Source of the DNA: Takakia lepidozioides
Taxonomy: Eukaryota > Plantae > Bryophyta
Direction: 5' to 3'
Assembly (NCBI GenBank): GCA_030704615.1
Contig: CM060731.1
Span: forward strand, 8,432,001-8,496,000
Length of the DNA stretch: 64,000 nucleotides
The notes beneath the pieces were generated by a model. It was not told where the DNA came from and did not search any database. It was given only the letters and a program-made list of their open reading frames with translations. Position numbers and translations under genes: made by a program. Position 1 is the first letter of the stretch. Each line of letters begins with the position of its first letter. Positions 4,513 to 56,960 of the stretch are shown in pieces.

Positions 4513-4617
4513 CTGAGTTTGCTGAACCTCGGCTGTCCAGTGGACGTTCTTGTTCACTTTCCTGGTGTCAGTTTTTCCAATGCATTGTATTGTTCCCTTT
4601 TATCATCCTAAGTATGA

Positions 4618-5364: not shown

Positions 5365-6843
5365 ATTATTTTTTATCAATCCCATCTCACTCAAGCTATT
5401 GAATATCTTCATGGTTTCTCTTTTTCATTTCCTTGTAATCACACACTTGAAAGATATGGTACTCTCATTTTGACTCATTTTCAGTTGAATTCTTTACGCA
5501 CATTCCGGGCAATCCCAAGACTCTGATACAGGCCTTCATACGGGGACAAAACAGTGGAGGTTCGCATTCGTGCATTCCCGGATTTATGATTATGTCTCTT
5601 TGGCAGGTTCAAGGAGATGCTGAGAACGTCATCGGTTCCTCAAGTCCCCTAAAGGAACCCTCCGGATCAGCTGTGAGTCGGAGTATTGAAGGCTTTCCGA
5701 GGATTCACGATGGTGCTCAAATTGAGGATGGATTCTCTGTCAGACCCTTGTCCTCCCGGGAAGCAGGCGACACTCTTCTCCTCTCGGGGTCCTCCTGGGG
5801 GTAAAATCCAAGGTGCAGGTGAAGAACACAAATATCCTGGAGACTTTATCAACCTTTCCGAACATTCCTCACCCTCCCTGTTCAGTACGCAGGGTCTGGT
5901 CTATCCAACCGTCGGGGACTCGGCTACGGCTCCGCTGCACCTGCTTCCGTCTCTTCCTCGCATATCTCCCCAGCACGAGGGTTGGACAGCCCAAATCCGC
6001 AGGAGTCAGGTGACTTAAACTCATTTCTCGCTCCTTGCTCATTCTCATAGTTTCACTTAGTTTGGGGTCTGATATTCATCTGTCGCTCCAGGTAAGAAAA
6101 TCTGCAGATTATGACCTTCCTGTCAAACGACGTCTGCATTGGAATGCAGTTCCGAGATAAATTATTCCTTCGTTGCGTTTTCATTCCATCCAGGATGTCG
6201 AGTGCTCAAGGGGCAATTTTCTGTGCTTGCCTGTTGTTGCCCCTCCACTTCTCCCATCGTTCAATGGCAAAACATTTCCAACATCGATACAGCATGACCT
6301 TGAACTGCTCGCACAATGTTCTGCACCAAAGAGGCGAAAAACAGCCCCCGAGCCATTTCCTTCCTCTGTAGGGAATCATTACAAAGGACAAAAGGCTGAC
6401 AAGAAAAAAAGAGCGGACTCCAAAGACATGAGGACTCCCTCGGATGTTGTGGCGCCTCGTCAATCCAAGCTCGCGGGAATCCACTGTTCTTCTGCTAGAC
6501 ATTCCAATAAGGCTTCAATGGTACATTTCAAAACAATTTCTCCACTTTCGTTTGCAGTTTTATTTTCTGTCCCAAACTAACTCCGTAATTTCTATACAAG
6601 CGAGTATGGAGCTGCATAACTTCTTGAATGCGCCTCCCGACAAGGTGCGTCCACTAACCTCCACTTGACAGCCGACGTTCATCTTTTCGTGATCTCGAAC
6701 TCTTCGATATATGGTCTACTCTTGGTCATTTACAGTAGTCCATTGTCGGGACACTTATGTCTCCGAAAACGTAGAGGTCACTCTGAAAGTAAGAAACACT
6801 ACATTGTGTTGTTTCTGACGACGGGAACACTTAAATTGCGCAG

Positions 6844-7592
6844 GTTGGTATCGTCCATCAGCCTTCATTTGCAACATTGGGGAAGAGGAAACGGAGGCTA
6901 TTAATATTGAGTGTCAACGGTCTCCTTTGCTACCGGCCACCTCCAACCGGCGGTGAATTGCTTAAGGAGAGATTTCGTTTTAGGAAAGTTACAGTTTATG
7001 TTCCCGAAAGACCTTTTGTGGTTCCCCGGCCCGGAGTCTTGGAGTTTCTCAACCTTGCGTTCATGCATTTTCACGTGGCGATCTGGTCATGTGCTGAAAG
7101 ACATGTTCTTTGTAGGATGCTCGAGTGCTTAGTTCCTACGAAAATTGCGAAGAAGTTTTGCTTCATCTGGTCAGCTGAGGATTGCAAAGACACTACCGGT
7201 TATATCATGCCGGGGATGAAATATCTCGTTAAGGATATTCGCACTGTTCTTGCCAAGTACCCTGGTACACCCTTTGCAACGCAGGGACAAATACTCCTTG
7301 TTGATGATGAGCCATCAAAGGGCCTCCGAAACCCACCAAATACTGGATTCTTCCGTATTTCATACAAGCCATCACCAAAGGGATTGGTTGACCAGGATGA
7401 TATGACAAAAGCTGTGTGACCATATATATTGAAAATGGCTGCAGCTTCAACAGTCGTAGATTACATCAGCGAAAACCCTGCCAAGTGTTCTCGTAAGCCT
7501 ATTGGTCATGACCATGCCTATTGGGCTTGGTATGGAAGATATGTTGATCCTCGTGTTTGGATCCCACAACAAAAGGAACCTGATTACCTTGG
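6844..7592 (+). pseudogene. FCP1/NIF (HAD-like) phosphatase-like domain 3 with in-frame stop at 7417-7419
   Basis: LLILSVNGLLC, RPGVLEFL, VAIWSC, FIWSAEDC, ILLVDDEPSKGLRNP; ORFs 6877 and 7429 share one frame; acceptor at 6843, donor near 7592. Confidence 0.75.
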
Positions 7593-8579
7593 TATGTACT
7601 TATCCCACTGTTTGTTGTTTATGGAGAATTTGATCTTGAAAGTGTCTTCCACTTGCACTTTTACTTTATCATTTTTTCTGCAAATGTTCCACATTTCAGC
7701 TGACATTTGTCATATGAAAAAATTGTTTTGCCCAGTCACATTCAAGGAGCGAATTCGAAAAGAAGAAGAAGAGCTTCGTGATTGGCAAGAATGATGGGCT
7801 TCCCGGCAGGCTTCAAGGGCATCAAGAGATTCAACAAGTAGAGTTCCAAGTAACATTTCGGATGATAATGTTACTACTAGGTTCGAATTCTCCGAAAGTA
7901 TTTCCGTTTTCATCTGGTGCGGAGACCGTTGCAAGTGGTTGTGGTAACCGGAGGCGTCTTCGAACACATGCCTTGACTGCGAGCCGTTTGGGAGGAGGCT
8001 TTGTAATACTAATGGGTTAGTGTAAGCCGTTGTATGGCTTCGAGCCGCTGGATAACATTAAATCCAACGGATGTACAGTTGACGTTACATTAAGTTTGAC
8101 TGTAACACCAAAGTTGCAATCTCTAATAAAATATAAATGTTTATCATCAATGTATGCGGACACATTCTTTCATATCATCCTCTTCATCACATGCCATGAT
8201 TGTTCTATGTTTGGTTTTGTATGTCATCTGATATGACAACCATTTTCTGCAAAAAGTTTTACATATCTGACCTCACATCATGGTGTAATTTATTGCATCC
8301 TCCCATTTTTTTCGTGAACGTCAACTTGGCAGTGGATGTTCTTCTAAAACCACAATACATACTTATATTGTCTCCAAAAATGTTTGGAGGATTATATTGT
8401 GTATAAAATAAACAAAATAATCATATATATCGCTTTATTTCAATAATAAATTTTGATTATTCATATTTCTCATATTATTTCTGGACCAAACAAAAGTCCA
8501 GAATTAGTTAAAATAGTGTTATTAGGGATATCATGACTAGAAATCAGTTTGAGAGCATCACAAGATGCCTACATTTGGT

Positions 8580-9080
8580 GGACAATGACACTGGTTTCAT
8601 ACAAATCAGACCCGAGATTTGATAAGCTTGCTGAGGTGAGGTGGTTGTTGGAGGAATTTGTCCAACGATATGCAAGTCATTTCAATCCCCACCAGTTCTT
8701 GACAGTGGATGAGATGATGGTGCATTGGTCGGGCACGATATGCGGGTTCAAAATGTACATGCCAGATAAGCCAGTGAAGCATGGCATAAAAATATGGGTT
8801 GTTACATGTTCAGTTTCTAAGTATGTTCATAATTTTGAGGTATACTTGGGCAAAGATGATGCTATGGATTTGGGCCATGGTCAAGGGCATGCGGTGGTCA
8901 CGTCGATGTTAAAGGGCTTTGAAAACAATGGACATGTGGTGTGCCCATAATATTTTCACTTCTATTCGTTTGTTACATGATCTACTTGAAAATGGCATTA
9001 TGGCCTGTGGTACAACTCGCATTTGTCGCAAGGGCTTCCCTCCATCGGGCCAAAATGCATGATCGAGGCAAATGGATGTA
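8580..9080 (+). mobile_element. piggyBac-like transposase fragment (DDE_Tnp_1_7)
   Basis: FDKLAEVRWL, LTVDEMMV, KMYMPDKPVKHGIKIW, NFEVYLGK, GHVVC followed by a frameshift. Confidence 0.9.
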
Positions 9081-10728: not shown

Positions 10729-11720
10729 TGTCACGGACATAGCCCAGAGGAACTTACCAGGAGTAAATACCAAAAGTTATCAAGTTACCATGTTACCGAA
10801 AATAACCATGACTTAACGTGATTTACCATTATTTACCAAATTACTGGGAGTTTACCAAATTACCAAGAGTAACTTGGGAAACTACTCAGGAAGCTTCATT
10901 TTGAAGAAACTTCTCCATCAAGATACCTCCTTTGTTTAAGGAAGCTTCTCCATCAAGAAACCTTTGTTTAATCTTGGAAACTTCTCCAGCAAGAAATCTC
11001 CATAGGGGAAGCTTCTTGGGGAAGCTTCTTAGTAGCCAGTATATATAGGAGGCGAAACTGGACACTCTTCAGTCTCGCCAACACAAGTTCAAGCTACTCT
11101 TGTTCCAAGTGCAGTACTCCAGTCCAGTTTCCAGTATCTGGTATTCCAGTCCAGTTTCCAGCATTCCAGTATCCGAGTCGAGTTCCAGTATTTTGTACTC
11201 TTGTCTATTGTTATAAAGATCATCTTGATTCATGTTCACCTACCATGCATTCGGCCACGCCGACCTTGACTTCTTGTCTAGTCTTGTACTTCTAGTCTGA
11301 TCTCTTGTTTGTATTCTGTCATGTTCTCGTCCTTGACAGATGTAGTTTCCACCATTCCAGTATCCGAGTCGAGTTCCAGTATTTTGTACTCTTGTCCATT
11401 GTTATAAAGATCATCTTGATTCATGTTCACCTACCATGCATTCGGTCACGCCGACCTTGACTTCTTGTCTAGTCTTGTACCTCTAGTCTGATCTCTTGTT
11501 TGTATTCTGTCATGTTCTCGTCCTTGACAGATGTAGTTTCCACCATTCCAGTATCCGAGTCGAGTTCCAGTATTTTGTACTCTTGTCCATTGTTATAAAG
11601 ATCATCTTGATTCATGTTCACCTACCATGCATTCGGTCACGCCGACCTTGACTTCTTGTCTAGTCTTGTACCTCTAGTCTGATCTCTTGTTTGTGTTCTG
11701 TCATATTCTCGTCCTTGACA
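10729..11720 (+). repeat. 5' LTR (10729-11338) plus two extra ~191-bp U5-end copies (11339-11529, 11530-11720)
   Basis: ...CTCGTCCTTGACA occurs three times at 191-bp spacing; TATA (CAGTATATATAG) at ~11037-11048. Confidence 0.9.
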
Positions 11721-11722
11721 GT

Positions 11723-11733
11723 TTGGCGAGACT
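11723..11733 (+). promoter_or_regulatory. Self-priming primer-binding site
   Basis: TTGGCGAGACT is the exact reverse complement of AGTCTCGCCAA (11071-11081), ~30 nt downstream of the LTR TATA box. Confidence 0.8.
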
Positions 11734-11758
11734 AAAGTTTATTCTTTAGTTAGTTAAG

Positions 11759-13292
11759 ATGGAAGGCACATTTACGGAAATGGTCACCACATTGCAGAGT
11801 CTTAAGCTCCAGATGCAAGAACTTCGTACATCTACCGCCCAATTGCAAGCTGATCAGTCTCAAGATCTTGGCAACGCTCTCCACAATTTGCAACAACAAA
11901 TTTCAGAGTTAAGGGAGATTCAAGAAGCACTGAAGATCGACCATTTTGCTACGACACTACGAAGTCAACTAAATCAACCTCGAGACAACCTACATGTTAT
12001 AAACGACTTCGAATTCAAAGATGACTTACTTTACTTCAAGGGACTTCTCTATGTACCTCTAGGACCTACACGACTTCGAATTCTTCAAACATGTCATGAT
12101 CTTCTGGCTTCAACAAAACATTGGAGTTGATATCCAGGGACTATTGGTGGCCGCAGATGTGGAAACTCGTAAATGAATTTATAAAGTCTTGAAACACGTG
12201 TGCTAGAGCGAAGGGACCACGACATCGACCTTACGGCCTTCTTCAACCATTACCCATTCCCAAGGGTCCATGGTCGTCCGTGTCTATGGACTTTATTACG
12301 GACCTTCCAATTTTCAAGACCACCGATTCAATCCTTGTTATTGTAGATCGTTTTACGAAGATGACACATTTCATTCCATGTAATAAGACGGTTACCGGCG
12401 AGGAAACTGCAAGACTCTTCCTCAATAATATCTACCGTATTCATGGACTCCCGAAAGACAATGTATCTGATCGATGACCACAGTTCATATCAAATTTCTG
12501 GAGGGGATTATTTCACATATTGAATACTAAGATCAACCTCTCTACAGCTAATCATCCACAGACTGATGGTCAAACCGAACGTGTAAACCAGATTTTGGAG
12601 CAGTATCTTCGCTGTACGATAAATTATCACCAAGATAATTGGACGGACCTTCTGTCATTGGCTGAGTTTGCCTACAACAACACTATACATTCTTCGACCA
12701 AGCAAACTTCATTTTTCTCCAATTATGGTTATCATCCTCGAGCAAACCCTTTCCACATGAAAACTGTTGGAAGCCTTGCTGCAGAAAACTTTGCTATTCA
12801 TCTTGCTACGATTCACAATGAGCTTACATCCCACCTCGCAGAAACTCAAAACAATACAAGGACTATGTAGATCAACGTCGTCAACTCCAATCCCAGCGAC
12901 CATCAAAGAAGTTGGATTATCAACGCCTGGGACTATTCAAAATTATTTGACAAATATATCTGGTCAGTTTTCGGCTTGAACTCCCACGAAGTATGCGCAT
13001 CCATCCAGTCTTTCATGTTTCACTATTGGAGTTGTATCATCCATCGAATATTCCAAGGAGAATTTCCGTACCACCTCCACCAATCGAAGTCAATCATGAA
13101 ATTGAGTATGAAGTCGACGAAGTCCTAGACTCTCGCATCAAGTATAAACGTCTTGAGTATTTCGTACATTGGAAAGGCTACGACATCAGCGAACGAATGT
13201 GGGAACCTTCATCCAACCTCGTCAATGCCTCTGACAAAGTCCAAGAGTTTCATCAACGATATCCAGCTAAGCCCCAAGCTACACGTCAATGA
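11759..13292 (+). pseudogene. Deleted gag-pol: gag N-terminus fused to integrase (HHCC, rve) and chromodomain
   Basis: LYVP...ILQTCHD; SMDFITDLP...VDRFTKM; [20 protein letters not shown]; IHPVFHVSLL; EYEVDEVLDSR...YFVHWKGY. No PR/RT/RH; several stops and frameshifts. Confidence 0.92.
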
Positions 13293-13438
13293 GACGTCAC
13301 AACGATGATGTCAGCCAAGCTAGCTTCAAGGAGAAGACTCCACATTCAATGTACCTGATACACGCTAAGGAGGAAGGAGCACCACACATCAGTATATATA
13401 GCTACACTTCCAACACTTTTGCATCTTGTATTGGCAGC

Positions 13439-13840
13439 ATGGAGTCACAAGAACCAGATACATTGGAGTTGTTGCTTACCCAACTACCAGATCAGCCGTT
13501 CCGACTCTCACGACCTTCAACATCACGCCGACGCTCTCGAGACGATGGGCCACCAATACGACGCGTACTTCTTCGTCTGGACCCCGTACGACGGCAAGTG
13601 GAGCCTACTCGAAGTCTGATAATTCTGTTGGAGGTTGAGGCTTTGGACCCAGAGGGCAACGAAATCATGTTTGAAGGTAGCTTCGAAAATTAGAATGCTC
13701 AAATTACTGCGTGGTCCCAAGTTCAAGGTGTTCGACACTATCGATGGTTACAAGGACCTATAAATTATTTGAGTCAAGAACGAAGAGTCGAATACTTGAC
13801 AAGTACCATTCGTCGGATTTTGGATTTTCTCCAACTCTAA
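13439..13840 (+). pseudogene. Additional 3' ORF of the retrotransposon (~133 codons, one internal TAG at 13691)
   Basis: MESQEPDTLELLL...FEGSFEN*NAQITAWSQVQGVRHYRWLQGPINYLSQERRVEYLTSTIRRILDFLQL; lies between chromodomain and PPT. Confidence 0.55.
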
Positions 13841-13895
13841 GCAAGTCCAAGATTGTACCGCTCCTCGAGGAACTCGGCGTTAGAGGAAGGGGTGA

Positions 13896-15119
13896 TGTCA
13901 CGGACATAGCCCACATGAACTTATCAGGAGTAAATACCAGAAGTTACCAAATTACCAAGTTACCATGTTACCAAAACTTATCATGACTTACCGTAATTTA
14001 CCATTACTTATCAAGTTACCGGGAGTTTATCAAATTACCAAGAGTAACTTGGGAAACTACTCAGGAAGCTTCTTTTGGAGGAAACTTCTCCATCAAGATA
14101 CCTCCTTTGTTTAAGGAAGCTTCTCCATCAAGAAACCTTTGTTTAATCTTAGAAACTTCTCCAGCAAGAAACCTCCATAGGGGAAGCTTATTGGGGAAGC
14201 TTCTTAGTAGCTAGTATATATAGGAGGTGAGACTGGACACTCTTCAGTCTCGCCAACACAAGTTCAAGATACTCTTGTTCCAAGTGCAGTACTCCTGTCT
14301 AGTTTCCAGTATTTGGTATTCCAGTCCAGTTTCCAGCATTCCAGTATTCGAGTCGAGTTCCAATATTTTGTACTCTTGTCCATTGTTATAAAGATCATCT
14401 TGATTCATGTTCACCTACCATGCATTCGGCCACGCCGACCTTGATTTCTTGTCTAGTCTTGTACCTCTAGTCTGATCTCTTGTTTGTGTTTTGTCATATT
14501 CTCGTCCTTGACATATGTCACGGACATAGCCCAGAGGAACTTACCAGGAGTAAATACCAGAAGTTACCAAAACTTACCATGACTTACCGTGATTTATCAT
14601 GATCTACCATTACTTACCAAGTTACCGGGAATTTACCAAATTATCAAGAGTAACTTGGGAAACTACTCAGAAAGCTTCATTTTGAGGAAACTTCTCCATC
14701 AAGATACTTCCTTTGTTTAAGGAAGCTTCTCGATCAAGAAACTTTTGTTTAATCTTGGAAACTTCTCCAGCAAGAAACCTCCATAGGGGAAGCTTCTTGG
14801 GGAAGCTTCTTAGTAGCCAGTATATATAGGAGGCGAGACTGGACACTCTTCAGTCTCGCCAACACAAGTTCAAGCTACTCTTGTTCCAAGTCCAGTACTT
14901 CAGTCCAGTTTCTAGTATCTGGTATTCTAGTCTAGTTTCCAGCATTCCAGTATCCGAGTCGAGTTCTAGTATTTTGTACTCTTGTCCATTGTTATAAAGA
15001 TCATCTTGATTCATGTTCACCTACCATGCATTCGGCCACGCCGACCTTGATTTCTTGTCTAGTCTTGTACTTCTAGTCTGATCTCTTGTTTGTGTTCTGT
15101 CATGTTCTCGTCCTTGACA
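13896..15119 (+). repeat. Two tandem 3' LTRs (13896-14513 and 14516-15119) separated by TA
   Basis: PPT AGAGGAAGGGGTGA precedes 13896; junction TGACA-TA-TGTCA. Confidence 0.92.
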
Positions 15120-16000
15120 CCAGGCCTCTTGCTTGGTGCAGATGGAGGTGTGGAGGTCAACTGAGAGGTGGTATGAATTGGAGATGTTGCCCGAGGTTGA
15201 TGAGACATATTGGTCGTGCGTCTAGGAGGGATGAACACATGTTTGATTATGGGGGTAAAAAACGGCGATACAGATGTAGGAATGGAGGGAGGAAAGACGT
15301 CGGGTACTTGCTAATTATAACCTTGCAATCCCTGGACGTCTGTGTCAGAATTAGGATTCACAATATCCATCATTGGTGGAGAATTCAGATCCGAGGTCGT
15401 TTGTTCTATCGAAAGTGCATCGTTAGAAAGACCGATATAAGTGCAAACTATATCGTCGTCAACCATGTAATTTCGTGCATGTGGGGGCCTGGAAATTGGT
15501 CTAGTGCCCATAAATGCATCAATAATCTCATACATCTCTTTGTTGAAATGTCTGGGTAGGTTCAACGCAATCTTGTCATGTGGACTCATACCCCAGTATT
15601 CCTGGTTTGAGCCTATGCCATTCATGTAGGGCCAAGATCCGTTTGAAGTCACCGTAGATGGCTCCAATTTATCTTTGCTGCATGCTGACCCATCCCTTGT
15701 GTAGGTAGAGTTCATGCCCTCGGCAATGACAACTGTAGCAAATTTTCTTCCACTTGGTGACAGCTGATTCAAATTGATCTCTTGGATCCACCCTTTCAAT
15801 GGATGTCATATGTTCAATCCTTTTGGCTTTTATTAGAGACATCACTTCCGCGTATTCCCAGCTGGGTTGGCGAGGCCTCTTGCTTGCCTCTTCCCCCAGG
15901 CCGTGGGGCTCTGCCACCTCTCGAAGGCCCAAATGCTTGATTCATTTCTTCGTCTTGAGGCTCCTCACCTTGATGCACCGCACCCTCATTCATGCCATAC
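15120..16000 (-). pseudogene. Trihelix/Myb-SANT DNA-binding protein pseudogene, 5' part (possibly TE-derived)
   Basis: RQPSWEYAEVMSLIKAK...VTKWKKI, YWGMSPHDKIALNLPRHFNKEMYEIIDAFMG; frameshifted. Confidence 0.75.
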
Positions 16001-23190: not shown

Positions 23191-23680
23191 TTAACTGTGG
23201 CTCAGGTTTCATTCCAAGAAAAGAAAGAAAGAAACATCATTGGGTACTATAACCATTTGATTCATTTTATGTTGCCACAAAACTACCCACTAATCAGCTT
23301 AGCGGAAATGGTATGATGTCACCTAGAATGATGCTAATCTAACTGAAGAATGTTGATCGAAGTTTGAATCCATGAGTGTATGCTCATGAGCTCAGTGAGC
23401 ATACTGAAAACAATTCTCACAATATACCGGAATAATGCCATCATGAAACATGTGAACATGTGAGAATTGTTTTCAGTATGCTCATGAGCATACACTCATT
23501 GATTCAACCATTCTTGAGTTACATTAGCATCAACATTCTAGGTGACATCAGCATAGCATTTCCACTAATGGGTAGTGGGTAGTTTTGTCGCAACATGAAG
23601 TGACTTGAATGGTTATAGGTAGTAATACCCAATGATGTTTCTTTCTTTCTTTTTTCGAATGAAACCTGAGCAACAGTTAA
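23191..23680. repeat. ~490-bp fold-back (long imperfect inverted repeat, MITE-like)
   Basis: TTAACTGTGGCTCAGGTTTCATT... pairs with ...AATGAAACCTGAGCAACAGTTAA, and pairing continues inward to ~23420/23460. Confidence 0.85.
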
Positions 23681-24607: not shown

Positions 24608-26943
24608 ATATATGCCTTTAATTGGAACACACATAAGAGTAGGCACTTATGCCATCCCATAAAAGTAAAGATGGACACTTTGCCGAACCAAGCGTCAATT
24701 ATGGTGTCGCTTGACCCCACAGGGCAACAAAACTCTCAAAGGGTCCAAAACATTTGCAAAAGATAGCACTCTACATATATATATATAACACAACTGGTGA
24801 CAGAGGCCCTAGAAGCTTTGGAATTAGAACCGAACACTATAAGGAACAAGCACACTGCCCAGCAAAGCCCAAGAACCGAGGGTGAGAAGGCAGAGACCGA
24901 AACAAACAACACAGGAACAGCCATGGACAAAACGGAGGAGTGAGCCCACAAGGGCGGCCAACTGCCAAAAGAAACACAGCCTCCACTTCAAAAAGTGACC
25001 AATTTTCCATCACTTTCCATCATTTGTCATTGACCATTTTCATCAATATGATGAACACAGTCAAAGAAATGGATGAAATAATCCTGTAGCGAAGTTTAGA
25101 GATGGAAAGAATTCAGTGCAACGTGGACAATGTCATCTAATGTCATCCAGTGGAAGGGGACCTATAGGCGCTTAATGTTAAACTTGCAAGCAGATCCAAG
25201 GTGGATCTTCCAAGCGCGAGGTAACTTATTTTATGTTTGCCAGGAGTGTCACGAGGGTAAAGTAAACTATTGATTTTGGAAATTTGGAGGGGTCCCCTAT
25301 CAGTGTCATGGTCAGTGACATGTCCACTGAAGTCCAGTGAATTGAACCTGTCCTGTCCCTTGTCACTTAGAGGGGACCCACCTATAATAGTGAAGGACAG
25401 GTTCAATTCACTGACTGGGAAAAGGGGATTTATTTTTGAGGGGTTGCTCTCGCCCACAGTGCCAGTACTATAGCATAGTATTTGAAGAATACAGAGAGCA
25501 CCTCTCTCCAGTGTTGTCTTTGTCAAATAAAGTAAAACTAGGGTAGCCTGTGCCGCTGGCCAAAGTGTCCAGTGTCATCTAAGTAGATTAAAGCACATTA
25601 TTATTGCAAGGCTACTTTTAAGATCTGATAGACATTGTTTTGAACTTCCCTTCTTTTGACATGTCATTTACTATGAATCAATCATTATGATTGGACCGCT
25701 ATTTTTCTTAAAGACAGTTTGATAAACATTTTGCCCTCATTTTGAAAGGCAAAATGGCTCGTGGAGACATCAAGGGCGTCAAATTAAAGTGTGGGAAGGG
25801 CTATAGTTGGGATTGCCCTTCAGACAGTGTCGGTTTCATTAGATGAGTGAATAGTGTTTGCATCTCTTATTTCTCTTCTTTTTGTAAATCAATTATTAGT
25901 CGAACTAGAGTACAAGTGTTGTTTTATTATATGTTGGCAAAGAATATGATTGGCACTTTGTTAGGCACTCTTATTTATGCAAGGCTATTTTTTGCATGTC
26001 CTTTAGTGTAAAAGGTGACCCAATAATGTGATTCTTCTTTTTGAATGGCTCTTTTTGGTCCCTATCAAACTAGATCAACCCCACTACCAATCAAAAGAAA
26101 GGGCTATGACATAGTCTCATAAATTGTTAGAGCAGCGTCACATACATGTGTGGAGCCAATACCCAAGATCATGATTCTTAGCTTATGATGGGAGCTATTC
26201 TTACGCTTCCCCTCCAATTTGAGTAGTTATGGACATGATAACACATTATTTCACCGGCAGAGTGTGTGCCCAAACTTCGGTTGGTAACCTCCTTTAAAAT
26301 GGGCATGACGAGCATATTTTGTTGAAAATTGAAATCAGCTACCCACATAATGATCACGGCTTGATGTAGTACTCTCCACAAAAGGTAGCGCCTCAAAAGG
26401 CTACTGCTTTCCAGTAGAAAGGTGAACACCTTTGTGACACCAATCCGTCGATTGAACCCACCACTTCCGAGGAGGTATGTGCCAATTACCACAAGGTTAG
26501 AATTTGATTGACAAATCAATTAACCCCTAAAGGACGAGAGGTGCTTCTGGGTTTTTGGACAATTCCGGGAATTTCCCAAAAATACCCTAAATTGCATTTG
26601 GGATGTGGGATTTTGTGAAATTTCCGGCCTCCTCCAGGTCAGGCAATCGGTGGCCGGAATTTCGCCTGAATCTAGCGACGTTTTCCGGGCCACGTCAAGG
26701 TTTCCCATTATTTGCCAGGGCCAGCTCATTCGAGCCGTCCCGATGTTCCTCGGCGTTTAGGGGAGGGCCTCACAAGCACCCGACTCTAACTGTCGGGGTT
26801 CCTTCTTTGTGAACTTGTCAACTACCACCAGACATGGGACAAGCCCGACAAGCAAGTTTACACACTGAACTGAGGGGGAGTCGAACCCCCTGATCTACCC
26901 TCATATGTAGAGAGTCCCCCCCCCCACACACACACCCACATGT

Positions 26944-28940
26944 TCATCGACCCCGGAGTTGATGTGCATCACGCAAACAATTGCCAAGACACATGAATGC
27001 ATCCTCGCATTGGGGACAGAAGTAGTGGGTACGCAGCCTGCGGCGGATGCACACACGACGAAGCAGGCTGTGCAAAGAGGAATGCCAGCGGGCAGGCTCT
27101 GTCGCCAACACGGATGCACGAACCGGACGCACATGCAGCCTGCCAGGAGCTGTAAGGGCGTGTGCCAAGGCCAACGAGAACTCCAGATGGGTCAGGGGAC
27201 GCAACCCCCTCGCTCTCATGTGATAGACATGCAAGATGTAAGAATTCACAATCGTGGTGTCCACAAGGAAAAAAAACATCTATGCCACCATTTATGAGTC
27301 TTCAGCTGCATGCTATATGCAGCTCGCATCTGGTCTTGTACATCTACACCACGCATGTAAGTTTGGTATTGAACATGCATTGGAACAGAAGGCACCTGTA
27401 CCCTAGCATTCCCCACAAACCTTCGCACCATCACAGGTGAATTCGGACCAGATGTTGGCCGAGATGCGGATGACACCATGAACACGCCTTTCTTATCCCA
27501 CCACAAACAAGCAACATCTTGTCGGCTGCGGTGCATACGCCACCATGTGTCCCCTTGCTTGGCAGTCTTGGACTTGGACAAGCGCGTCGAGGAAGGAGGC
27601 AATCCCTTTCTATTGACCCTGACAGTGCCAGTGGCCCATGTCCCAAGCAAAGCCATGTCATACAGCAACCTAGGTGATGTGAAGTAATTGTCAGTCACCA
27701 CCACATGGCCAAGTCCATGCAATGGAGACACTAAACTCCAAACCACATCATATCCTTCACCTTTGCTAGACTTCTTCCTGATGCCCTCGGGGCCCCCATT
27801 CTTGCCACAATAGACATCAAAATCATACACATAGCTACTGACTGCGTCTGCAAGGGCCTACACTTTGATGCCCCACTTGCATGGCTTTTTAGGCATATAC
27901 TGCCGTATAGCACAATACTTACCCTTGTACCTTATCATAATCTCGTCAACTGTCAACAATTTGTGCAAGTTCCAATGCCATTTGCAGGCACTGGCAATGT
28001 CTTCACATGCCCATCTCACTTTCCCAATTTTGTCAAACGCAGGACTGCTACGATCAGACACCAACGTCAGGTTATCCACCAAATGCAAGCAACGTAAGAT
28101 TGCTTCATAACGCTCTCTTGTCATGACCTTCCTGATGATAGGGCATGCAAAGAATACCTCACTCTGCTGCCAGTAGCAGCGGCTGTTTGGCAGCCTCTTT
28201 ATCCACATAAACAAACACAAACCAAGTCAGGCGAGTAGCTCTGGCACAACCAATGGCCTCCAAGAAGCACCACCTCGAGTTTCATACGTCATCCTCTCCG
28301 CCGCGTAACGATTGGTCTCTCGACAAATTCGCAGCAGGGTTGCTTGGGTCCAGAACAACTTGAAAAACAATTCCACAAGGGAACAATTCCCAAAAATCCG
28401 CTGCAACATGGGCTCACGTGGGGGACTAGAGAATTTTTCTTTATCACTGCAGAAGGTAGTTTCTCTGCACTCCCAACTTGCAGGAGCGAACAAAACTGCA
28501 AAAGCCTCTTCACTCACCTCGTCAACCTCCTCGGCAGGCCCATCACTCTCCCAGTCCTTTTCCTCACACGAATTGCCCTCATATCCCTCCATAAGCCCCA
28601 TCTCCACATCCCCATTTCCACGATCCAACAAGTCTAAACCACTAGCATCCAAATTGGGCCCCGCATGGGAAGAGCCCTGCAAATTGAAAGACAACACATG
28701 CAGAGGAGACCTGTAGGGGTTAGCGGGAGGCGCACAGTCACTCGCAGTGAATTGCATTTGTGCGCTACCGCCCACTGTGCACCCCGCATCACTCCTTCTT
28801 TTCACAGTTCTTCTCCTCACAGGTGGTCGATGAGGAGGCGAATTCTCCTTGCCTGCAGGCCTTTCCCGCTTCTGGCGCGCTACATCCCTCATTTGTTTGA
28901 CTGTCCTCATCTGGCCAGACATCCTCTCTAAGCACAACAT
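26944..28940 (-). pseudogene. piggyBac transposase
   Basis: ETNRYA, LTVDEIMI, YMPKKPCKWGIKV, VVTDNYFTS, YMRGVDVQDQ, KWWHR, C-terminal Cys-rich domain. Two in-frame stops at likely Trp codons (28227, 27858) and one frameshift in the A-run near 27270. Confidence 0.93.
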
Positions 28941-29255
28941 TCATAGCCTCACTAAAGCCCCTTTTGTCACCTTCCTCCCTTCTCTCTTTCCACCCCAAAA
29001 TCAAATTAACATGCCTTCTAAATGCAAAGTGAAAATTCACAGGACGAGGGTGCTTCGGCCACGCTGCGCGCACGGAGGCAGAGGCAAAGAAAGCAAGTAC
29101 TCCTCACATAGCAAACCCAAAATCTCCCTCAATTGCCCCTCCGTACAGTGCTGCTCAATCAACGCCCACTGAGTGACCACCTCAATAGCCCTCTTATACT
29201 GCAGCGGAGGTGTTGGTGGCTCCAAGGCATCACACACCTTGCGCTTGTGACCCAT
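28900..29255 (-). pseudogene. Conserved ~120-aa accessory/N-terminal domain of the piggyBac family
   Basis: MGHKRKVCDALEPP...EYLLSLPLPP / WPKHPRPVNFHFAFRRHVNLILGWK...RGFSEAMNVVLREDVWPD; homologous peptide at 56412-56765. Confidence 0.75.
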
Positions 29256-29364
29256 AGCATCCTGCGCCCAGACCCTATAAACCCACCTAAGTACGAGCAA
29301 TGCAAATGAGGAGACACAGAATGCAGAAATGACACCAACGGCCGCCAAGGCATAGCGCTGCAAC

Positions 29365-29662
29365 ACCCTAAACGAATGCACTAAAGCTCATTCAACAGAG
29401 GCGACAGTAATATCCCAAGACACAAAGAAGCAACAAGCTAAGGGCACTTAGCATAAATGAGAGAGCCATGTGCACTGCCTCCCCCCAGCCTACGAATTCA
29501 TGAATGCGCATCAGCGCCCTAAACGAACGCACTGAAGGACATTCAACAGAGGCGGCAAAGCATATCAGAGAACACAGACAAGCAACAAGCTAAGGGGACT
29601 TAGCTTCAATGACAGAGCCTGTAGAATGCCTCTCCCCAGCCTGCGAATTCATGAATGCGCAG
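29365..29662. repeat. Two ~150-bp tandem repeats in the piggyBac 5' region
   Basis: CCCTAAACGAA...CATTCAACAGAGGCG...AGCAACAAGCTAAGGG...GAATTCATGAATGCGCA occurs twice. Confidence 0.8.
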
Positions 29663-31632
29663 ACGCGCCACCCGCCTCTAACCCTCAGCAATTGTGGGTT
29701 GGATACCCAGGCAACCAGAAATCAACAAGGCCTTGTGCCAACGCAAAATGCTGTCGAACACAAACACAAGCCACAAAATGCATGCGGGATGGAGTTGGCG
29801 GGGAGCTGTGAAGAAGAAGGTCGAGCTGCCAAAATGCGCGCAAAAGACGGGCCGGGCGGGGGGTGCACAAAGGGCCGGGCGGTGCCATCATGGCGGGTGC
29901 CCATGCACCCCATGCCTCATCACCCCTGCTTGCCCCCCGCCACAAAATCCCACCTGCGTGGCCGCTGCCACCTGCCATGTCGACGGTCAACTGCCGTGGC
30001 CCCCCCCCACCCAAAATCCTGCAATTTCCAAACTTCAAAAAATTCCTGACGACAGAGTTTTTCTCTGTTGGGGGCGCCATAAAGACTTGCATGTGCACCT
30101 CGTTCCGCGCTACATTTTTTGTTCAAGCCGCTTGTTCATCGGACTTCATCTGTGCATGCTACGGATGGATGAAAAATTGGGCCAACCCAATTCGGGTCGG
30201 CTCGTCGTTTAGGGGTTAATACAATCAATGCAACTAAAGCCACTATGGACATGGTGGAATCCATTCTACAAGCAACAACCATCTCAAAACAATATAGAAT
30301 GGTAGCCAACGATTCAAGAGTTCCAAAATACTAATTTGTTCATCCATGACTTGTTAAGATGAGACTACATGGAAACATGTCTACTTATTGGATTGCAAAC
30401 TACAATGTGGAAAAACAAGTGGTTGTAGTTACAAATCAGAGGCTTGCAACCAATAAATAGAGAGATTGAACAATATAAGCAAATATGCGTTGGCGACGTG
30501 ACCTACTTCCTACTAGTACCCCTTTGTTTCGTGATACGTGAAGGGGAATAATAATGGGAGGCACTTACTACTGCATATTCATCAAAAGGTATGTTGTTTG
30601 ATGTTGTTGTATCCTAAATGTTTATATAATTAATGTTAATGTTAATGTTTTGTAGGCTAAAGTGGCCCTTTACAACAAGGGTTCCACAGCTATTTTGCAG
30701 TGTATAATTGTTTTTCCAAACTATCTACCTTACATTGTACAAAGGAACGATCTTGGACATCTTGTCATGTAAATCCTTGCTTATTATGAAGGGTTAATTG
30801 ATTTTTCCTGGCTTAATTGTTATCATTAATGTTGTGTGGATATTCGTGACTTACACGTGTTGATGTAGTGGAGCATCTTGTAGTGGATGTTGGAGAAAGA
30901 ATTACTGAACCAAACCCGCCCAGCTTATTACGGAGAGTCATGTTATCCTCTAGGCATGTGCAACACCAAAAATATTGGTTTGTCAATATTGATGTGTAAA
31001 TGTCTTGGTAGGCGGAAAAGCAATGATGGCCAACCAGCAACGTCAAAGTCAAGGTGAAAGTGTTTGATGTAGGTATCTTGAAAAATATGCAAGATGGAAA
31101 TTACTAGATGACTATTACCCATCTGAAGATTTGGACCATGTATAACAAGAATCCTTTAAAGAAACTTATAGTTGTGTTATTACATTTTAAATACAAGTGC
31201 ACTTGTTTCAATGCCATTTGCATAGAAAAGAGACCGTCAAAATCTAGCTGTATGGCTTGAACATTCTTATAAATAACATGTTGGCCATGTACTACGTCGT
31301 GTAGGCTATCTTGAGGTTTATTTAATTTGAGGAGTAAAATCAGATTATGTCGTGACATTCGTGCCTTAGCTGAGCACATCATCTAAAATACTTTGATCTA
31401 TAATAACAACAACAAATGTAAATTACATTGGGATAGTCAAACAAGAATAATATGTAACTAAATAACTAGGTTTCAAAAACAACAAAACCCAAGTTGGGAG
31501 ATCTTCTTTCTATGCAGGAAAAATAAAAATAAAAAATCTTATTGATGTAGTATCTTTTTGGGTTACTTTTTGAGAATTAATTAGATTTATCATACAGCTT
31601 TGTCATCAACGATGTTGAAAGTATGACATATA

Positions 31633-44833: not shown

Positions 44834-45214
44834 ATTCCCGGCTTGTCACACGTCTTTCCCACACAGACCTGCCTCCTGCAGGTTATTTTTGCAACTTGTT
44901 GGAGAGGCCAACGAATCCGAGTCTTCACAAGCAGCCCGACTGTCCGGAGCGATTCTGTTGCACAGTGAGAGCAATGACGGTAGGTCGAAGCACAGAGCAC
45001 TGGGTATATTGAAATAGAAGAATGGTTTATGGAAGCTTTAAAAAGACTCGCCAAGCTGGTCTCAGGGTCCACCATAAAAAATGTTGATCCTACCTGATCT
45101 TCCACCTGCTGCTACAGCCCAGCACAGGACACTACATCATGAAACACCCACAAGCTCACAAGCAATGCCCTCCTGCTTCTCCTCCTAAGCGAGTGGGATT
45201 CTCATTACACTGTG

Positions 45215-45348
45215 TTTCACAGGGGGTAATAAGATGACTGTGAACTGACACTCTGCCTGACGCTCTGCATGCAAAACTAGGATGCAGGTAGGATGCAGAG
45301 CGTCAGGCAGAGTGTCAGTTCACAGTCATCTTATTACCCCCTGTGAAA
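45215..45348. repeat. Perfect 56-bp inverted repeat with 22-nt loop
   Basis: 45215-45270 is the exact reverse complement of 45293-45348. Confidence 0.95.
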
Positions 45349-45785
45349 GACTTGATAGGGATAGATTCCGAATACGTATGTATAATTTCCAGATACGTAT
45401 TTAGAATCGAAATTACGCCATATTCTTAGAAATATTCCACCTCTAGTTACTGAAGGAATAAACCAGTGCCATCCTATAAAGAAATTCAACACACCCTCAA
45501 TGAGCCTTGTGCTAAAAGTAGTTGCTAACTGTGCTAAAAGTAGTTGCGGACTTTAGTAGTTGCTAACAATACCTTCCCATTAGGGCACTGAGTTGCAGTA
45601 GTGCTCTATCCAATTGAGCTAACCACTGAGCAAGTTCTTCTATGGACACCTAAACATCCCCATCTGTAGACTGTCTTTAACACACAAGCCGCAAGGCGTT
45701 ATGGCTCCACCGTTATAAATAAAACAATTGGAGAATATATATTATGACTAGCTAACATTTTGCACTGGTATAAAACTGTATATAC

Positions 45786-47272: not shown

Positions 47273-47714
47273 GTATATACCCTGACCTAGAGGTATCTTC
47301 CTAACCCCATCCATCCACATGGATGAACCTTACAATCTCATCCCTACCAACAAGGAGAACACCGTCACAGTCACATTTGACGTCAAGGGGAGATTATAAC
47401 TTCTACATATGACATACATTGGAGCCAAAGTGAAAATTGCATTAGAAAATTGATTTGACTGTGGTAATTCACCAATTTTCACATTTTTCTTGGGTGAATG
47501 GCCTACACATTCGGGATGAGGAGCACATAGTAGGTCCTCTCTGAAGATTTCCGACTGAAAGTTCAAATGTAAAGCGGGTGCTTTGTATGTGTAGGAGGCT
47601 TAATTGCCCCAATTTACACTAATCAGCCCAAAGCTCCTAAGCTGTTTGGAATCCAAATTCCAATGGTGAGTATGCAAAGCTACAATGCAAAGTACACAAA
47701 AAACATTTCAAGTT

Positions 47715-49445
47715 CAAAATTTGGATAGGGATTTTCTGAATTTCCGGCCATTGCCAAGTTAGGCATTTAGGTGCCGGACCGGTGCCTCTTTGGACACTAT
47801 CCGGGCGGGGGTAACCCATGATTTCATCAGGGTTGTGAATCAAATCATACATTTGGCCGGAAACCACCCCTGACCACGCCGTCTACCCAACCCGCCTAAC
47901 TATTATCTCTCAACCATCGTATCTCTTCACTTCAGCATGATGAAACGCAACCAAAACTGAGGGGGACTCAAACCCCCCTAATCTGCCCCTTTGTGCAGAC
48001 AGCTCCTGCCCGCTCCCCACCCACCAAGCAGCCGCCAAACAGCCCCCACACCCCACCAATGCCACAAACCATGTCATGCTTCAAAAAATGGCAATCGCTC
48101 AACCAAAAGGAACAACCCACTCCGCAATGTACCGTACGGTCAGCCACCAAAGCAACCAAAACAAAACACTTACAGCCTAGCAATGCATACCCGACCTCAA
48201 CAACAAACAGCTAAGGGAATTACGAAGAGCCCAACTCATCAAATCTCGGAATCCCAATGTTCATTGAAACACTCAAGGTAGGACCAACTCTAACACAGGC
48301 ACACTCTACATAAAAACCCCTACAAAGCCTCCAGCCAGCATGCACCAAAAACACATATAAAATGAACTATGGCACTGACAATGATGTTTCTGACGGTGGA
48401 AAACCATGCATAAATGACGAAGAGTGGAATGTGACAAGTGGTGCACATCTGAAGCCCCCGGCACCAAGACAGTTGTCGTTTTCAATGCTGCCCAAGTGCC
48501 TATTGTAAGTGAATGAGCCGTGGCCAAGCAAAACTCTAGGTGAGACACAGCTCGCACGCCCATGCCCTTTGGCGGATACAAACAATATATGTGAATTCAC
48601 CGTTGTGGTGTCCACAAAAATTAAATAAATAAATATGCCACCACTTGCAGGTTTAAAGCGGCATACTATAAGCTCCTCGGAGCTGGTCTTGCACGTCCAC
48701 ACCACGCATGCAAGCCTGATACTCCACATGCATTGGCACAGACGGCATTGAGACCCTGGCATTCTCCACAAATCGTTTAACATTCACAGGTGAATTCGGG
48801 CCCAATGCTAGCCAAGCTGATGATGACACCATGAACATTCTCTTCTTGTCCCACCAGAGACATGTAGCAATCTATCAGGTGCTATGCATTTTGAACCAAG
48901 TATATCCTAAGTGTTTAGCATTCTTGCTTTTTTTCAAGCATGTCAAGGAAGGAGGCAACCTCTTTCAATTCAACCTTATTGTCCCAGTGGCCCAGGTCCC
49001 TTGCAAAGCCAAGTCATACAACAATTGGGGAAAAGTGAAGTAATTGACACTGACCACTATGTGCTCCCTGCATGAAATCCAAAGTCCAGGCACTAGGCGG
49101 GTTACTACATCATATCCCTCTCATTTAGTCCGACTTTCATCTTATGCCAAGGGGACCCCATTTTTCTCACAATACATACCAAAATGGCTAACTTAGCTAG
49201 CACTAGACAAAATTGGCAAGTGCCCACACCTTTATGCCCCACTTGATAGGTTTGTTTGGCGTATATTGGCGGATCGCACAATATTTCGGAATCCCCTTGT
49301 ACTTGATCATGATCTCATTCCCGTCAATAGTTGGCCAAATTCCAGTGTGACCTACACTTCATAGCTATTTCCTTACACAACCATCGCACCTTGCCCAACT
49401 TGTCAAATTGGTCATTGCTTCGATCAGAGACCAATGTCACATTAC
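47715..49445 (-). mobile_element. Degenerate piggyBac copy (3' half), same family as 26524-30215
   Basis: TLVSDRSNDQFDKLGKVRWLC, VPMHVEYQACMRGVDVQDQLRGAY, VDTTTVNSHI, HLEFCLA; 3' non-coding similarity (GGGATTTT.TGAA.TTTCCGGCC; TGAGGGGGA.TC.AACCCCC). Confidence 0.88.
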
Positions 49446-50379
49446 ACAACAACCACATTGGCAAAAAGTCACCAGCCATTTCACTGAAATTATGGTGATT
49501 TTGGACATAATCACTCAGAAAAAATTTGGTCACAAAAGACAAGTTGTTTTAGACATCGGGTTGTTTCATACATTAGTTATTTGTGACTAGTAAGGAGAAT
49601 CACCATGATGTGGCACGCAATATGGTGATTTAAAGAACTATGGATAAATTATTCAAATCATTATTCTTACAAAATATAATATATAGTTAAAGTTTGTATT
49701 ACTTTTACTAGATTTAAATGTTAATACTTTGGTCATAAATCACTCTAAGAATACCACATGGCGACATTTGTGCACCAAGTGTTTGTAATTTGTACCAAGA
49801 TGGTGTGGAGAAGAATCATTTGGTGCTTTGAGTCACTACAAATGATTGGAGCATTCTTGACCACGATTGTGCCATGTATTTTGTCAGAGCATATATACAT
49901 ATATATAATTTAAATATATTATATATTACATATAAGAATAATATCGTAATATTGGCACGTAATATTACATCAATACATGAAGCGAGACGTTTGTTTTGTT
50001 TTGTAGCGTCGTTGAGATCTCCCAAACCGCGGGCCCAGCGCGGGTGCTTGGTGCCGTTGGAAAGCCCTTGGTGAGGAGGGGTGCACCGGCTTGGTCTCAT
50101 GATTTTTGGACCAGCGGTGTGGGAGATCTGGAATTTCAAGTGCTTTGGGTCATTGGAAATTCGAGAAAAAATAGCAAAGTGGGCTTTCCTGGAGCAATGA
50201 TTGGCCCTTCATGTGGGAGATTTGGAATTTCCAATACTTTTGGTCGCTGGAAATTCGCAAAAAATAGCAAAGTGGATATATCAATATATGAAGCCTTGAG
50301 AGGGGAGATTGCAAAAATAGCAAAGTGGGCAATGACATAGAGATCTCACAAATTGTAGGTCTTTGGATACATTGGGGGT

Positions 50380-50940
50380 TGCAGTGGACACTTGGGCCTC
50401 TATATGGGAGATGCACTTGGATACATGAATAGAAGATTGCACTTGGGCTTAGATTTAAATTTTTCACACATGGGCCAACGGCATAGGCTACATTAGAGGT
50501 CGCACTTCCTCAACATAAGAGATGCACTGGGATACATAAGAAATTGCACTTGGTCTTAAATGACAGTGGACACTTAGGCATCTACATGGGAGATGCACTT
50601 GGATAAAAGATTGCACATTGGGCTTAGATGGGCCTCGACATAGGAGACGCACTTGGATACATAGGAGATTGCACTTGGGTTTAAATGACAGTGGACACTT
50701 CTACACAGGAGATGCACTTGGATACATAAAAGATTGCACTTGGGCTTAGATGGGTCTCGACAAAGGAGACGCACTATGATACATAGGAAATTGCACTTGG
50801 TCTTAGATTTCGATTATTCACACATCGGCCAGCGGCACAAGCTACCGTAGAGGTCAACTTGGGCCTCGACATAGGAGACGCATTTGGATACATAAGAGAT
50901 TGCACATAGGCTTAGATGACCCTGGATACTTGTGCCAATT
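50380..50940. repeat. Minisatellite-like tandem array (~7 units of 55-70 bp, core GGAGATGCACTTGGATACAT...GATTGCACTTGGGCTTAGAT)
   Basis: Direct observation. Confidence 0.85.
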
Positions 50941-53133
50941 GCACAGGCTACCTTAGTAATAATAATGAATCCTTATTTATATATATATGTATATTACCAA
51001 GGACAACAGGTACAATAGCAAACCCAACTTAGACAACTATATGTCGCGAAAATGACCTTTGGTGTGAAAGAAGGTTCCTTTAAACATGACCACAACTTTA
51101 GTTTTTGTACGATCATAGTCACAATGTATTGACCCTACATCTATACTACACCTAAGATAAAGCATAAAAGTGTTTCGATCTGTTCTAATATTTCTCCTCA
51201 ACTTCATAGCTCACGGTTGTACATGCCAACCGATACTTTTGTGCTCATCAACATACACATCACAAATCCAGCGGTTTATGCAGCATGGGGTGCCACTTTC
51301 TAGTTTCTTTTATCGCACCCATATACACATGACTACAATCACAAATTAGCAATGGTTGTCTCTTAATAACCAAATATTATGTTATCTTAACAAGTGTACA
51401 CCATTGTGAGCTCAGACCATGACCCTAGAAAGACCTTTGATGTTGACAGTGACTTAGAGAAAATCCATCAGTATCGTTGCCGCTCAAATGGTTAGTGGCA
51501 ACTATGACTATGTTCTACCAATGATAAACCATGCATAGCTATAGATACTCCAATCACTGCAAAAAGCTTTGTACTGCTTGCAGCTTGCACTATCAGGCCA
51601 ACCTTCAAAACCTCTATCAATAAAAAGGTACGCGGTTGAAAATACATGCAGCAAATGTGAAGAAACCACCCTAGAGAATAAATTAAGCCTTATCTCAATG
51701 AGAGACATATCCTCAGGGAAAATGTAGGGTGTGGGGTTGACAAATGGCTACAGATGACGGATGTTCATTCCATTGCCAGACAAAAACAAATACAAATGTT
51801 ACCTAAATGTAATGCGTCCCTAGTATCACAGGGAATGGGACTAGGTAATACTAAAACTAGAAAGGCAATACTATGCCTTTGCTTATAAAACACCAATACA
51901 TAGCTAAACTGGCCAAGGTCACACGTGTTTCAACCAATCTAATTGCATACTACTCGTGTATACTTTAGAACCCAAGTTATCATACCAGCTCAGTTTAACT
52001 CCTCAAACTCAATCACATTCTACATGAAGAAAGCTCACATTGCCAACGTTGCAGCCCCACCATTATGAATGATTTGTAAATTAGTACCTTTGCCAGTGTT
52101 GTTCCAAACTCCAGCCTTCAAGACCTACGTTCCCGATACATACGCTCTCCATTGCCACAAAATATAGACTCCTTGCACTCCCACGTTTTTGGGGTAAATA
52201 GATTTGCAAAATAGGAATCGACGGGCTCCTCTACCTCCTCACTCTCATCATCTACGTCATCTAGTCAATGTCCTCTGCCGAATCTCCCTCCTACAGGGCA
52301 TTTGCACGAATGGTTGGACCAAAAACGACAGATGTTGAGTCCTTGGAAGTCCATGGATTTTTTATTTTTTTTTGAGCCAATTTTGTTAGTTTATTTTTAG
52401 AAACTAGATAGTAGTATACCAAACATTTTTAGTAAAGAATCCCCTACCACCTTACCATTGTAGATTATAGGTTTGTATGTCGGGTAGTTGCAGCCTACGG
52501 TGGATCAAAATGAGACACACCATAAAAGTACATAAAGGGGGATGTGGCGAATCCTCAACCATTGGATTCACTTCAATTTACGATCTCAACCGTCGACTAT
52601 TATTCACCATTAAAGACTTTATTTTCAAATCGCGATAGTTTCATATCACTATAGTTTTTTTAAAATTTGACCTTGATCCATCCCGGGGGTCTACCCTTGG
52701 TCTATGTATTTAATGAGGTAGTGTTGATATTTCAAAGAATTCTATATGTAAAGGACTTTACGAAAATAGTTATTTTGAAGGCTCAAAATAGTATATAAAA
52801 TTTATTTTACTTAATATTTTTGAGTGGAAGTTTTCATTCTAGATTCTTTATCCCTCGAAGCACATTTGGTCAAGTCCCTTTTTCTAATTTTCTATTAATC
52901 ATGCTTTAAAAGAACTCCATAACGGTCTTTTATATGGACTATAACAAATCCTTATGGACTTGTTCAAAAGTTTTGCCATTTAGGAGTATGATAATTTACA
53001 ATTAATCAAGGTCCCAAAAAAACAGTGATGTGACAGCATTTTTGATCCACCATAAGCTACAACTGCCCTGTCTTTTGGTAAAAGATGACACCCCAAAAAC
53101 CCAAAACATAATATGTTGTGGACAATTTGTTTC

Positions 53134-55299: not shown

Positions 55300-55464
55300 G
55301 AGCCATTTAAAAAATATATATGGCATACCCCTGAAAGATATTAGTAGTCGCAAGTGATAGTTATGTCAGCTTCGGCCGGAGTCCTCTCTCTCTGGTTCAC
55401 AACTTGATCATATTTGGACAAATGTCTTAAACAGGTTGATTCTGGTTGCCTCGTCCTTTAGGGG
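55300..55464. mobile_element. Isolated piggyBac terminus (left boundary uncertain)
   Basis: CTCGTCCTTTAGGGG|TTAA, the reverse complement of the 26524 TIR. Confidence 0.75.
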
Positions 55465-55599
55465 TTAAATTACTTAGTCATGTGCCTAGATATCATCACA
55501 TTTCAGCTAATGGCTGACATACAAAACATTCACTGTTTATATGTTGATATAAAAACTTTATTTTATTCTAAAATAAATATAACAAAAGCAATCTATTAA

Positions 55600-56960
55600 C
55601 CCCTAAAGAACGACGAGACCCGAAATGGGTCGCGTCCATTTTCATCCAAGGTGCAACTTCCGTGGATGAAAGTTATGTCTAAATGAAAAACCTTCCTCTC
55701 GTCTACCTCTACACGCTCTAACAAGTGGTGCATTGAAATACTAAATCTCCTCCACGTTGGAATTTTTCAAGTGTGAGTGGTCTAGGAAATCTGTGGTTTT
55801 GGGGGTATCCACACACTTTGGCCGCAAAGTGCCATGGGCCGGGCACTGGCGGCACTGGCCAACTGCAGGTGTGTGGATTTGCCCCGCATGTCTGCCCACC
55901 ATTATGTGGAAATCCACCCGCCCTGGAAGCGAAGGTGGCAGTGTGGGTGGCGGGTTACAAGAGACTTTACGTGCAAATGACATAGCCTCCTTCTCTTTCC
56001 TGCACTCCCCCGAAGCTCGACTTCGAGCTTTCGCTCGACACACATTAGGGATGTCGTGATGACATTTACAGGTTGTGCATGAAAGGCAATTCCCCCGGCA
56101 CAAGCATATGCTCTGTTTGTAACCCGGATTAGCCCAAAGAAGGGCTAGTTTCTATTTGCAGCAGCAATGATTGCAGTCACTTTGCATTTTGTCTCGTCCT
56201 TGCTTTCATGGTATGGTTTGTTTTATGTTTCATGTCGTGTTAGGCGTGACTGCTACAAATGTGTTGCGGTGGCTGCCTTCACTAACGCTGCACTGTTGCA
56301 TCCTTGGTCGACATTGTATGTAATGAGTCTACGGTGTCCTTCAACGGTGTCTTAGCCCCATGCACATTGATTGAAAAGATACGGGTTGCATAAGTTTGGG
56401 CGTAGGTGCTCATGGCTCCCAAGTGCAAACTGATTAAAACACTGGAGCCGCCACCTTCTTTACTGCAGCATATTCACATGGTGGATATCATTACAACTTA
56501 GGCTTTGGAACAACACTGCAAATAGCGTCAATTCAGAGAGATTTTCGGTTGTTTGACTATAGAGTACTTGTTGAGTTTGCTGACGCCTCCTCGCGCGTAG
56601 TGCTGGCCTAAATATCATGCAACCCATAACTTTCGTTTTCTATTTAGGAGACATGTAGTCGAATCTTGGGTTGGAAGAGAGGAGGAAATGGGGGATCTAG
56701 AGGGTTTTCTGACAATCTGCATTTTGTTTTGAGGGAAGAGGCGTGGTCGGATGCCAACTCTCAAGTAATTAAAATTTACATTAGCTCGGACCAAGAGTCT
56801 CAAGTAGCCAATGTCATGTCGCCTCCTCCTTGGGCACCTACATGTCGGAAAGCAAACTTGCACCTTACTGATGTTGGTCTGCATTGTGCCATTGCACATC
56901 ATATTTGCTCTCTATTGCGTGCAATCTCGGCTAATGCAACCAATTGGTGTAATGTATGAA
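55600..56960 (+). mobile_element. piggyBac 5' half including the accessory domain (56412-56765)
   Basis: TTAA|CCCCTAAAGAACGACGAGACCCGAAATGGGT matches the 30215 end; MAPKCKLIKTLEPPP...EYLLSLLTPPRA*CWPKYHATHNFRFLFRRHV..LGWKR...RGFSDNLHFVLREEAWSD. Confidence 0.85.

Follow-up and report, generated by a model that had tools for sequence, protein, structure and literature searches.

A conserved second reading frame ahead of the transposase in a plant piggyBac element

Among gene-delivery tools piggyBac is one of the main ones, and it is taken to be an element with a single gene. In the window analysed here (the whole 64-kb stretch of Takakia lepidozioides DNA), an initial annotation had pointed to a conserved domain of about 120 amino acids upstream of, or fused to, a piggyBac transposase. 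The locus raises the question of whether this element encodes a second protein beside its transposase and, if so, of what kind.

A piggyBac element and its upstream reading frame

The following features were delineated (coordinates are those of the window).

26520..30219, minus strand: complete piggyBac-like DNA transposon of 3.7 kb (copy 1), with TTAA target duplications at 26520-26523 and 30216-30219
30201..30215, minus strand: 5' terminal inverted repeat, 15 bp, starting CCC, 14/15 bases as in the 3' repeat
26524..26538, plus strand: 3' terminal inverted repeat of copy 1
29355..29669, minus strand: tandem duplication of ~151 bp in the 5' leader of copy 1
28789..29255, minus strand: ORF1, from its ATG at 29255 to a stop at 28791-28789; about 155 codons once the frame is restored
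28808..28841, minus strand: SPP..RRR stretch of the transposase frame; the ORF1 tail runs across it, at +1 phase in copy 1
26944..28940, minus strand: frame of the piggyBac transposase, with a provisional start (Pfam DDE_Tnp_1_7 at E 9e-22 and 3e-27)
55596..56855, plus strand: copy 2, with TTAA and 5' terminal inverted repeat at 55596-55616 and decayed ORF1 from 56412, reaching to the SPP stretch at 56819
47680..52300, minus strand: decayed transposase and 3' part (52300-52130, 49450-48350, 48030-47680)

Judged by its sequence, the element that hosts copy 1 is a piggyBac rather than a Kolobok, because it has CCC termini and a DDE_Tnp_1_7 transposase; the rule for Kolobok termini is RR..YY (PMC9587614). 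The piggyBac hallmarks found in copy 1 are the TTAA duplication, short terminal inverted repeats with CC 5' ends and DDE_Tnp_1_7 with a DDD triad, the Asp motifs being VDE (~27950), TDNY (~27695) and GVDVQD (~27350). The C-terminal end of this transposase is Cys/His-rich, and the frame is broken by stops at 28227 and 27858 and by a frameshift at ~27278. In public DNA runs, contigs were found for each of the 30 bins, among them short forms that fuse both element ends across internal deletions, indicating that copy 1 belongs to a multicopy family; many contigs also have loose ends at 30219. An Rfam search returned no match inside the element. PiggyBac has already been annotated in a land plant, in a fern repeat table (PMC6890710). 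The contigs of set X1, guessed to derive from RNA, lack cover at the element ends, where the DNA runs peak; one of them, of 2143 nt, spans 27461-29604, although contigs cannot show a transcript.

A profile search found exactly two copies of the domain in the 64-kb window. The peptide motifs listed in the initial annotation are present in both, and the N-half of copy 1 is 49% identical to copy 2 over 63 aa (E 4e-11, within-window search). The whole ORF, with about 155 codons, is longer than the ~120 aa first proposed; its conserved core (29255-28905) has ~115 codons. The two copies are broken at different places, as had been noticed: copy 1 lacks one base at ~29061, while the frameshift of copy 2 falls just after FRRHV, in a sequence that also carries three TAG stops and several indels. 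The presumed open consensus was borne out, since contigs of DNA runs, which represent other genomic copies, carry one extra base behind 29061, the base missing from copy 1; an intact database homologue, P0001, reads through the site of the same frameshift. Diverged contigs (loose ends in sets X1, X2 and X5) cease aligning exactly at the ATG at 29255.

Over 93 codons, copy 1 and copy 2 gave a dN/dS of 0.23 (bootstrap 0-0.50), near the 0.17 of the transposase control; a value near 1, which the initial annotation had named as refuting its suspicion of selection, was not obtained. The underlying pS and pN were 0.68 and 0.32 (pN/pS 0.46, 0.33-0.66), compared with pN/pS of 0.84 and 1.77 in shifted frames of the same comparison, and mismatches by codon position were 37/25/50 of 95. 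Among genomic copies, 10/27 core variants were synonymous vs 21-29% expected, a mild bias (40 of 124 rows), and variants in the overlapping tail favoured neither frame (4/13 synonymous in each). It is very improbable that the region is non-coding and owes its likeness to shared ancestry or DNA-level constraint. Such a reading would accommodate the fact that both window copies are broken and that DNA identity upstream of the ATG is 52-62% vs 59-65% in the ORF (gapped alignment), but it is contradicted by 25 invariant columns kept by homologues at about 40% identity and is largely refuted by the codon-position and dN/dS test. We conclude that the coding region ahead of the transposase is real and under purifying selection.

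A HMMER search of 1.84 billion representatives gave 7 matches, of which 4 were kept as true homologues; the other three (P0002, P0003 and P0006) were set aside as tandem-repeat proteins. A fifth homologue came from a profile search. All five are unnamed proteins of 97-224 aa with neither a transposase nor a credible Pfam domain; they are gene calls on contigs, so that their ends and their link to piggyBac are putative. P0001 (148 aa, intact) is 63% identical to ORF1 over 70 aa. No candidate came from a word-index search with copy 2, no usable match from an ESM Atlas search, and no real relative from a plasmid scan or from the viral and metagenome contigs covered by locus scans; three prokaryote-genome loci were rejected as chance, their match spans being 11-15 residues. 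No publication describing the family was found in the literature searched, most subscription journals and Repbase lying outside its scope.

Immediately upstream of the ATG of ORF1, a short motif (29256-29285; 56390-56411) is common to both copies and to diverged contigs. In the contigs it holds TGGGC and the telo-box-like sequence TAGGGTTT, so a function as a promoter or leader element in plants is possible.

The setting of copy 2 is more complicated. Pieces of a decayed transposase at 52300-48350 match copy 1 above shuffled controls, and a pyruvate decarboxylase gene without introns lies in two parts: the minus strand carries its N-half (Pfam TPP_enzyme_N positions 4-81) at about 53400-53130, and the plus strand carries the remainder, beginning at about 57340. 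Both this gene and a piggyBac have likely been split by an inversion spanning about 53130-57340; turning that segment back would rejoin pyruvate decarboxylase and would set the terminal repeat and ORF1 of copy 2 upstream of the decayed transposase, as in one element. Copy 2 thus probably represents the 5' half of the element located at 47.7-52.3 kb and, if so joined, would provide another instance in which ORF1 sits 5' of a piggyBac transposase. In the same region, a 180-bp piece downstream of pyruvate decarboxylase (58992-59171) recurs inverted at 54175-54354, and two piggyBac-type TTAA ends stand head to head, 128 bp apart (55450-55468 and 55596-55616); a non-autonomous element close to the decarboxylase gene may have the left one as its boundary.

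Elsewhere the window contains a TPX2-domain gene, a glutaredoxin-GRXCR gene, and chromodomain and Copia-type retroelement remnants besides pyruvate decarboxylase, a gene content suggestive of a land plant. At 3847-7419 and 8515-9050, three NIF/FCP1 phosphatase-like ORFs lie on the same strand as, and just upstream of, a further, more distant piggyBac transposase fragment, beside which the window profile search found no ORF1. A Ty3-type LTR retroelement remnant at 10729-15124 encodes a chromodomain, and its LTR-like ends contain 191-bp repeats; near-perfect long inverted repeats at 23191-23680 (nested arms over ~490 bp) and 45212-45351 (a hairpin with a 59-bp arm) are possibly foldback elements or small-RNA precursors.

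Separate product or transposase N-terminus

Reading frames and spacing suggest that the ORF1 product is probably separate from the transposase. In copy 1 the restored ORF1 ends at its own stop (28789), and the transposase frame, shifted by +1, overlaps the ORF1 tail; the distance from the conserved W to SPP is 76 nt in copy 1 vs 75 nt in copy 2. The end of P0001 coincides with the end of the ORF1 tail of copy 1, in the same (ORF1) frame. The out-of-frame phase of copy 1 is kept in 3/7 of the distinct non-allelic contigs listed across the W-to-SPP interval, and among 12 of 13 indel rows there was no indel from DNA runs in this interval. Diverged contigs align down to 28808-28809; by hand reading in copy 1 phase, an ORF1-frame stop follows within two codons at two of the three loose ends there, and the transposase frame is open at all three.

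The alternative, in which the domain forms the N-terminal end of a fused transposase, whether in a lineage that lacks one base (as copy 2 does) or by way of splicing or a +1 ribosomal shift, strikes us as unlikely, though it has evidence of its own. The initial annotation had copy 2 running in frame into the transposase N-terminus, and its 75-nt spacing is indeed in frame with SPP; however, this frame runs into a stop at 56959 and the plus strand carries no transposase beyond it, so that no fusion is shown in copy 2, a copy whose three stops and several indels further weaken the argument. One of the 7 listed contigs, from set X1, has one base fewer across 28860-28946 (86 vs 87 letters), and three others have indels of unplaced position across the W-to-SPP interval, two of these (set X6) being net -1 and -4; because of these unplaced indels a fused lineage is conceivable. 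The transposase frame has no clearly conserved ATG of its own, those at 28940 and 28892 varying in relatives, and sites resembling an acceptor (28677) and donors (29237 and 29180) would be available for splicing, but among the joints listed none is intron-like. Against a fusion also stand the termination of P0001 in the region of the ORF1 stop and the outcome of a weak search, in which no homologue of 393-2000 aa appeared among 7983 candidates scored. Of the two arrangements envisaged at the outset, the upstream position of the domain is thus the better supported. We note that a diverged contig from the DNA runs skips 114 bases and realigns at the acceptor-like AG at 28677 (28661-28693), a point that could be an intron end, although the run is one of DNA.

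Kinship of the ORF1 protein

The initial annotation had suggested a resemblance to the P2X7 C-terminal domain and Kolobok accessory proteins. This link is a possible one: there is a loose likeness in motif order, with compatible predicted helices. Searches with single sequences or profiles of 5-9 rows (HMMER filters on) gave no match to PF20478 at E<=10, and P2X7 chains were absent from the PDB-sequence matches of such profiles at the same threshold. The zinc motifs PxWCxCxxC and LCCRxxxGxCITT occur in 0/5 homologues. The same is true of the strict IRxx[FYW]P and of Y.G, both drawn from the KolX motif (L/I/V)PSC x3-4 IR xx (F/Y)P x5 Y(S/T)G; a variant of IRxx[FYW]P that is one residue longer occurs in 3/5, and one [LIV]P.C match among the homologues sits after the IR segment, not before it. 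A loose KolX pattern matched 3/5 homologues and at most 2 of 20000 shuffles, but it was written after both families had been seen and carries no weight. AlphaFold models of the ORF1 family (mean pLDDT 49 and 52) place helices over the two conserved C-half segments; with these low-confidence models, Foldseek gave no match at E<=0.001, and a VIA fold search gave best Z scores of 5.2 and 4.4 with no P2X7 chain among the matches listed, outcomes that weigh neither for nor against the link. Descent of ORF1 from a Cys-less C-half of KolX or ballast is a tentative proposal to which we give somewhat less than even weight; what this and the Sm reading below leave over goes to a new family related to neither.

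Rather less probable is that ORF1 is a captured host gene fragment, possibly Sm/LSm, retained either as mere cargo or to regulate the element RNA, a reading we regard as improbable. The Sm fold consists of strands, with the Sm1 and Sm2 motifs on a five-stranded barrel. Sm/LSm chains appeared in 4/8 rows of one PDB-sequence profile search (best Sm E 0.18) and in 5/6 rows of a second (best E 0.24), the likeness lying in an Sm1-like N..FRFL...R.EG...GF...N.V (E 0.18-1.5), but none of these E-values reaches significance, and some sequences are common to both searches. Moreover, there was no LSM Pfam match at E<=10, both low-confidence models give helices where Sm has strands, and the hydrophobic moment of the last segment is 1.46 and 1.18 at 90-100 degrees vs 0.16-1.02 at 160-180.

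Proposed role and comparison with known systems

The explanation we favour, with moderate confidence, is a two-gene piggyBac in which ORF1 and the transposase occupy overlapping frames and ORF1 encodes a separate small helical accessory protein acting on the element. In this model, ORF1 (about 155 codons), situated ahead of the transposase and overlapping its frame, would yield a small helical protein whose conserved core is basic and aromatic and which, through its conserved Arg/aromatic helices, would act on the DNA of the element itself or on the transposase complex; the downstream transposase might be expressed by splicing, reinitiation or a second promoter, all candidate routes. That ORF1 serves as a helper for the element, as MURB or KolX do, is by analogy slightly better than an even proposition, and putative binding of nucleic acid by its protein falls a little short of even. 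A complex prediction of ORF1 with the transposase's N-terminal part gave an uninformative score of 0.02. We consider it rather unlikely that land-plant piggyBacs of this lineage are two-gene elements in which ORF1 is a new helical family, unrelated to KolX and needed to move or to escape silencing in plants, with the overlap giving both a free helper and a fused transposase.

ORF1, a small additional gene that selection maintains as it does the transposase, is a candidate co-factor for transposition. Should it be a relative of KolX, the ballast-like accessory domain would extend to land-plant piggyBacs, and ORF1 would offer a short cysteine-free version for probing the role of this domain in transposition.

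Copy 1 resembles the canonical piggyBac of Trichoplusia ni (PMC5381638) in its TTAA target, short terminal inverted repeats, DDD triad and C-terminal Cys-rich part, and differs from this type element, which has one ORF, in its second conserved ORF upstream. The statement that canonical piggyBacs encode only a transposase accordingly fits the type element but does not extend to two non-land-plant piggyBac families in which KolX-like second proteins are on record (PMC9587614), so that a two-gene piggyBac is not unprecedented. Accessory genes beside the transposase in MuDR (MURA/MURB), PIF/Harbinger and CACTA provide a working analogy, and transposase-accessory binding is described in MuDR (PMC12973397); these are other superfamilies, with no sequence relation seen.

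With KolX of Kolobok0 and the P2X7 ballast-Nanor domain (PF20478), ORF1 shares its setting as a small accessory gene in a DDE transposon that targets TTAA (PMC9587614, PMC7016195) and two Arg-bearing predicted helices ending in an aromatic-Pro pair. It differs in having none of the three zinc-binding motifs in place and no terminal Y(S/T)G (motifs as in PMC7016195), and its conserved N-half has no visible counterpart in KolX/ballast or Sm. Closer in setting are piggyBac-2_GrCh and piggyBac-14_PI (PMC9587614 Data S6), which likewise have a small second ORF in a piggyBac with few ballast cysteines, the KolX-like proteins of piggyBac lacking most of these (PMC9587614). By eye, the GrCh protein has the same motif order as ORF1 (N..R..K/R, G, R, IR..WPD). 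In contrast, the GrCh and PI second proteins keep C..C...PC.W and [IL]P.C, which are absent in place from ORF1, their R-to-R spacing is 32 vs 34-35 in ORF1, and the conserved N-half (W-A...Q...IL..L...YL..LP.PP..WP) is particular to ORF1. Two-gene piggyBacs with KolX-like helpers are thus already known (PMC9587614), and what is new here is a conserved, selected and so far unnamed second ORF in this plant piggyBac.
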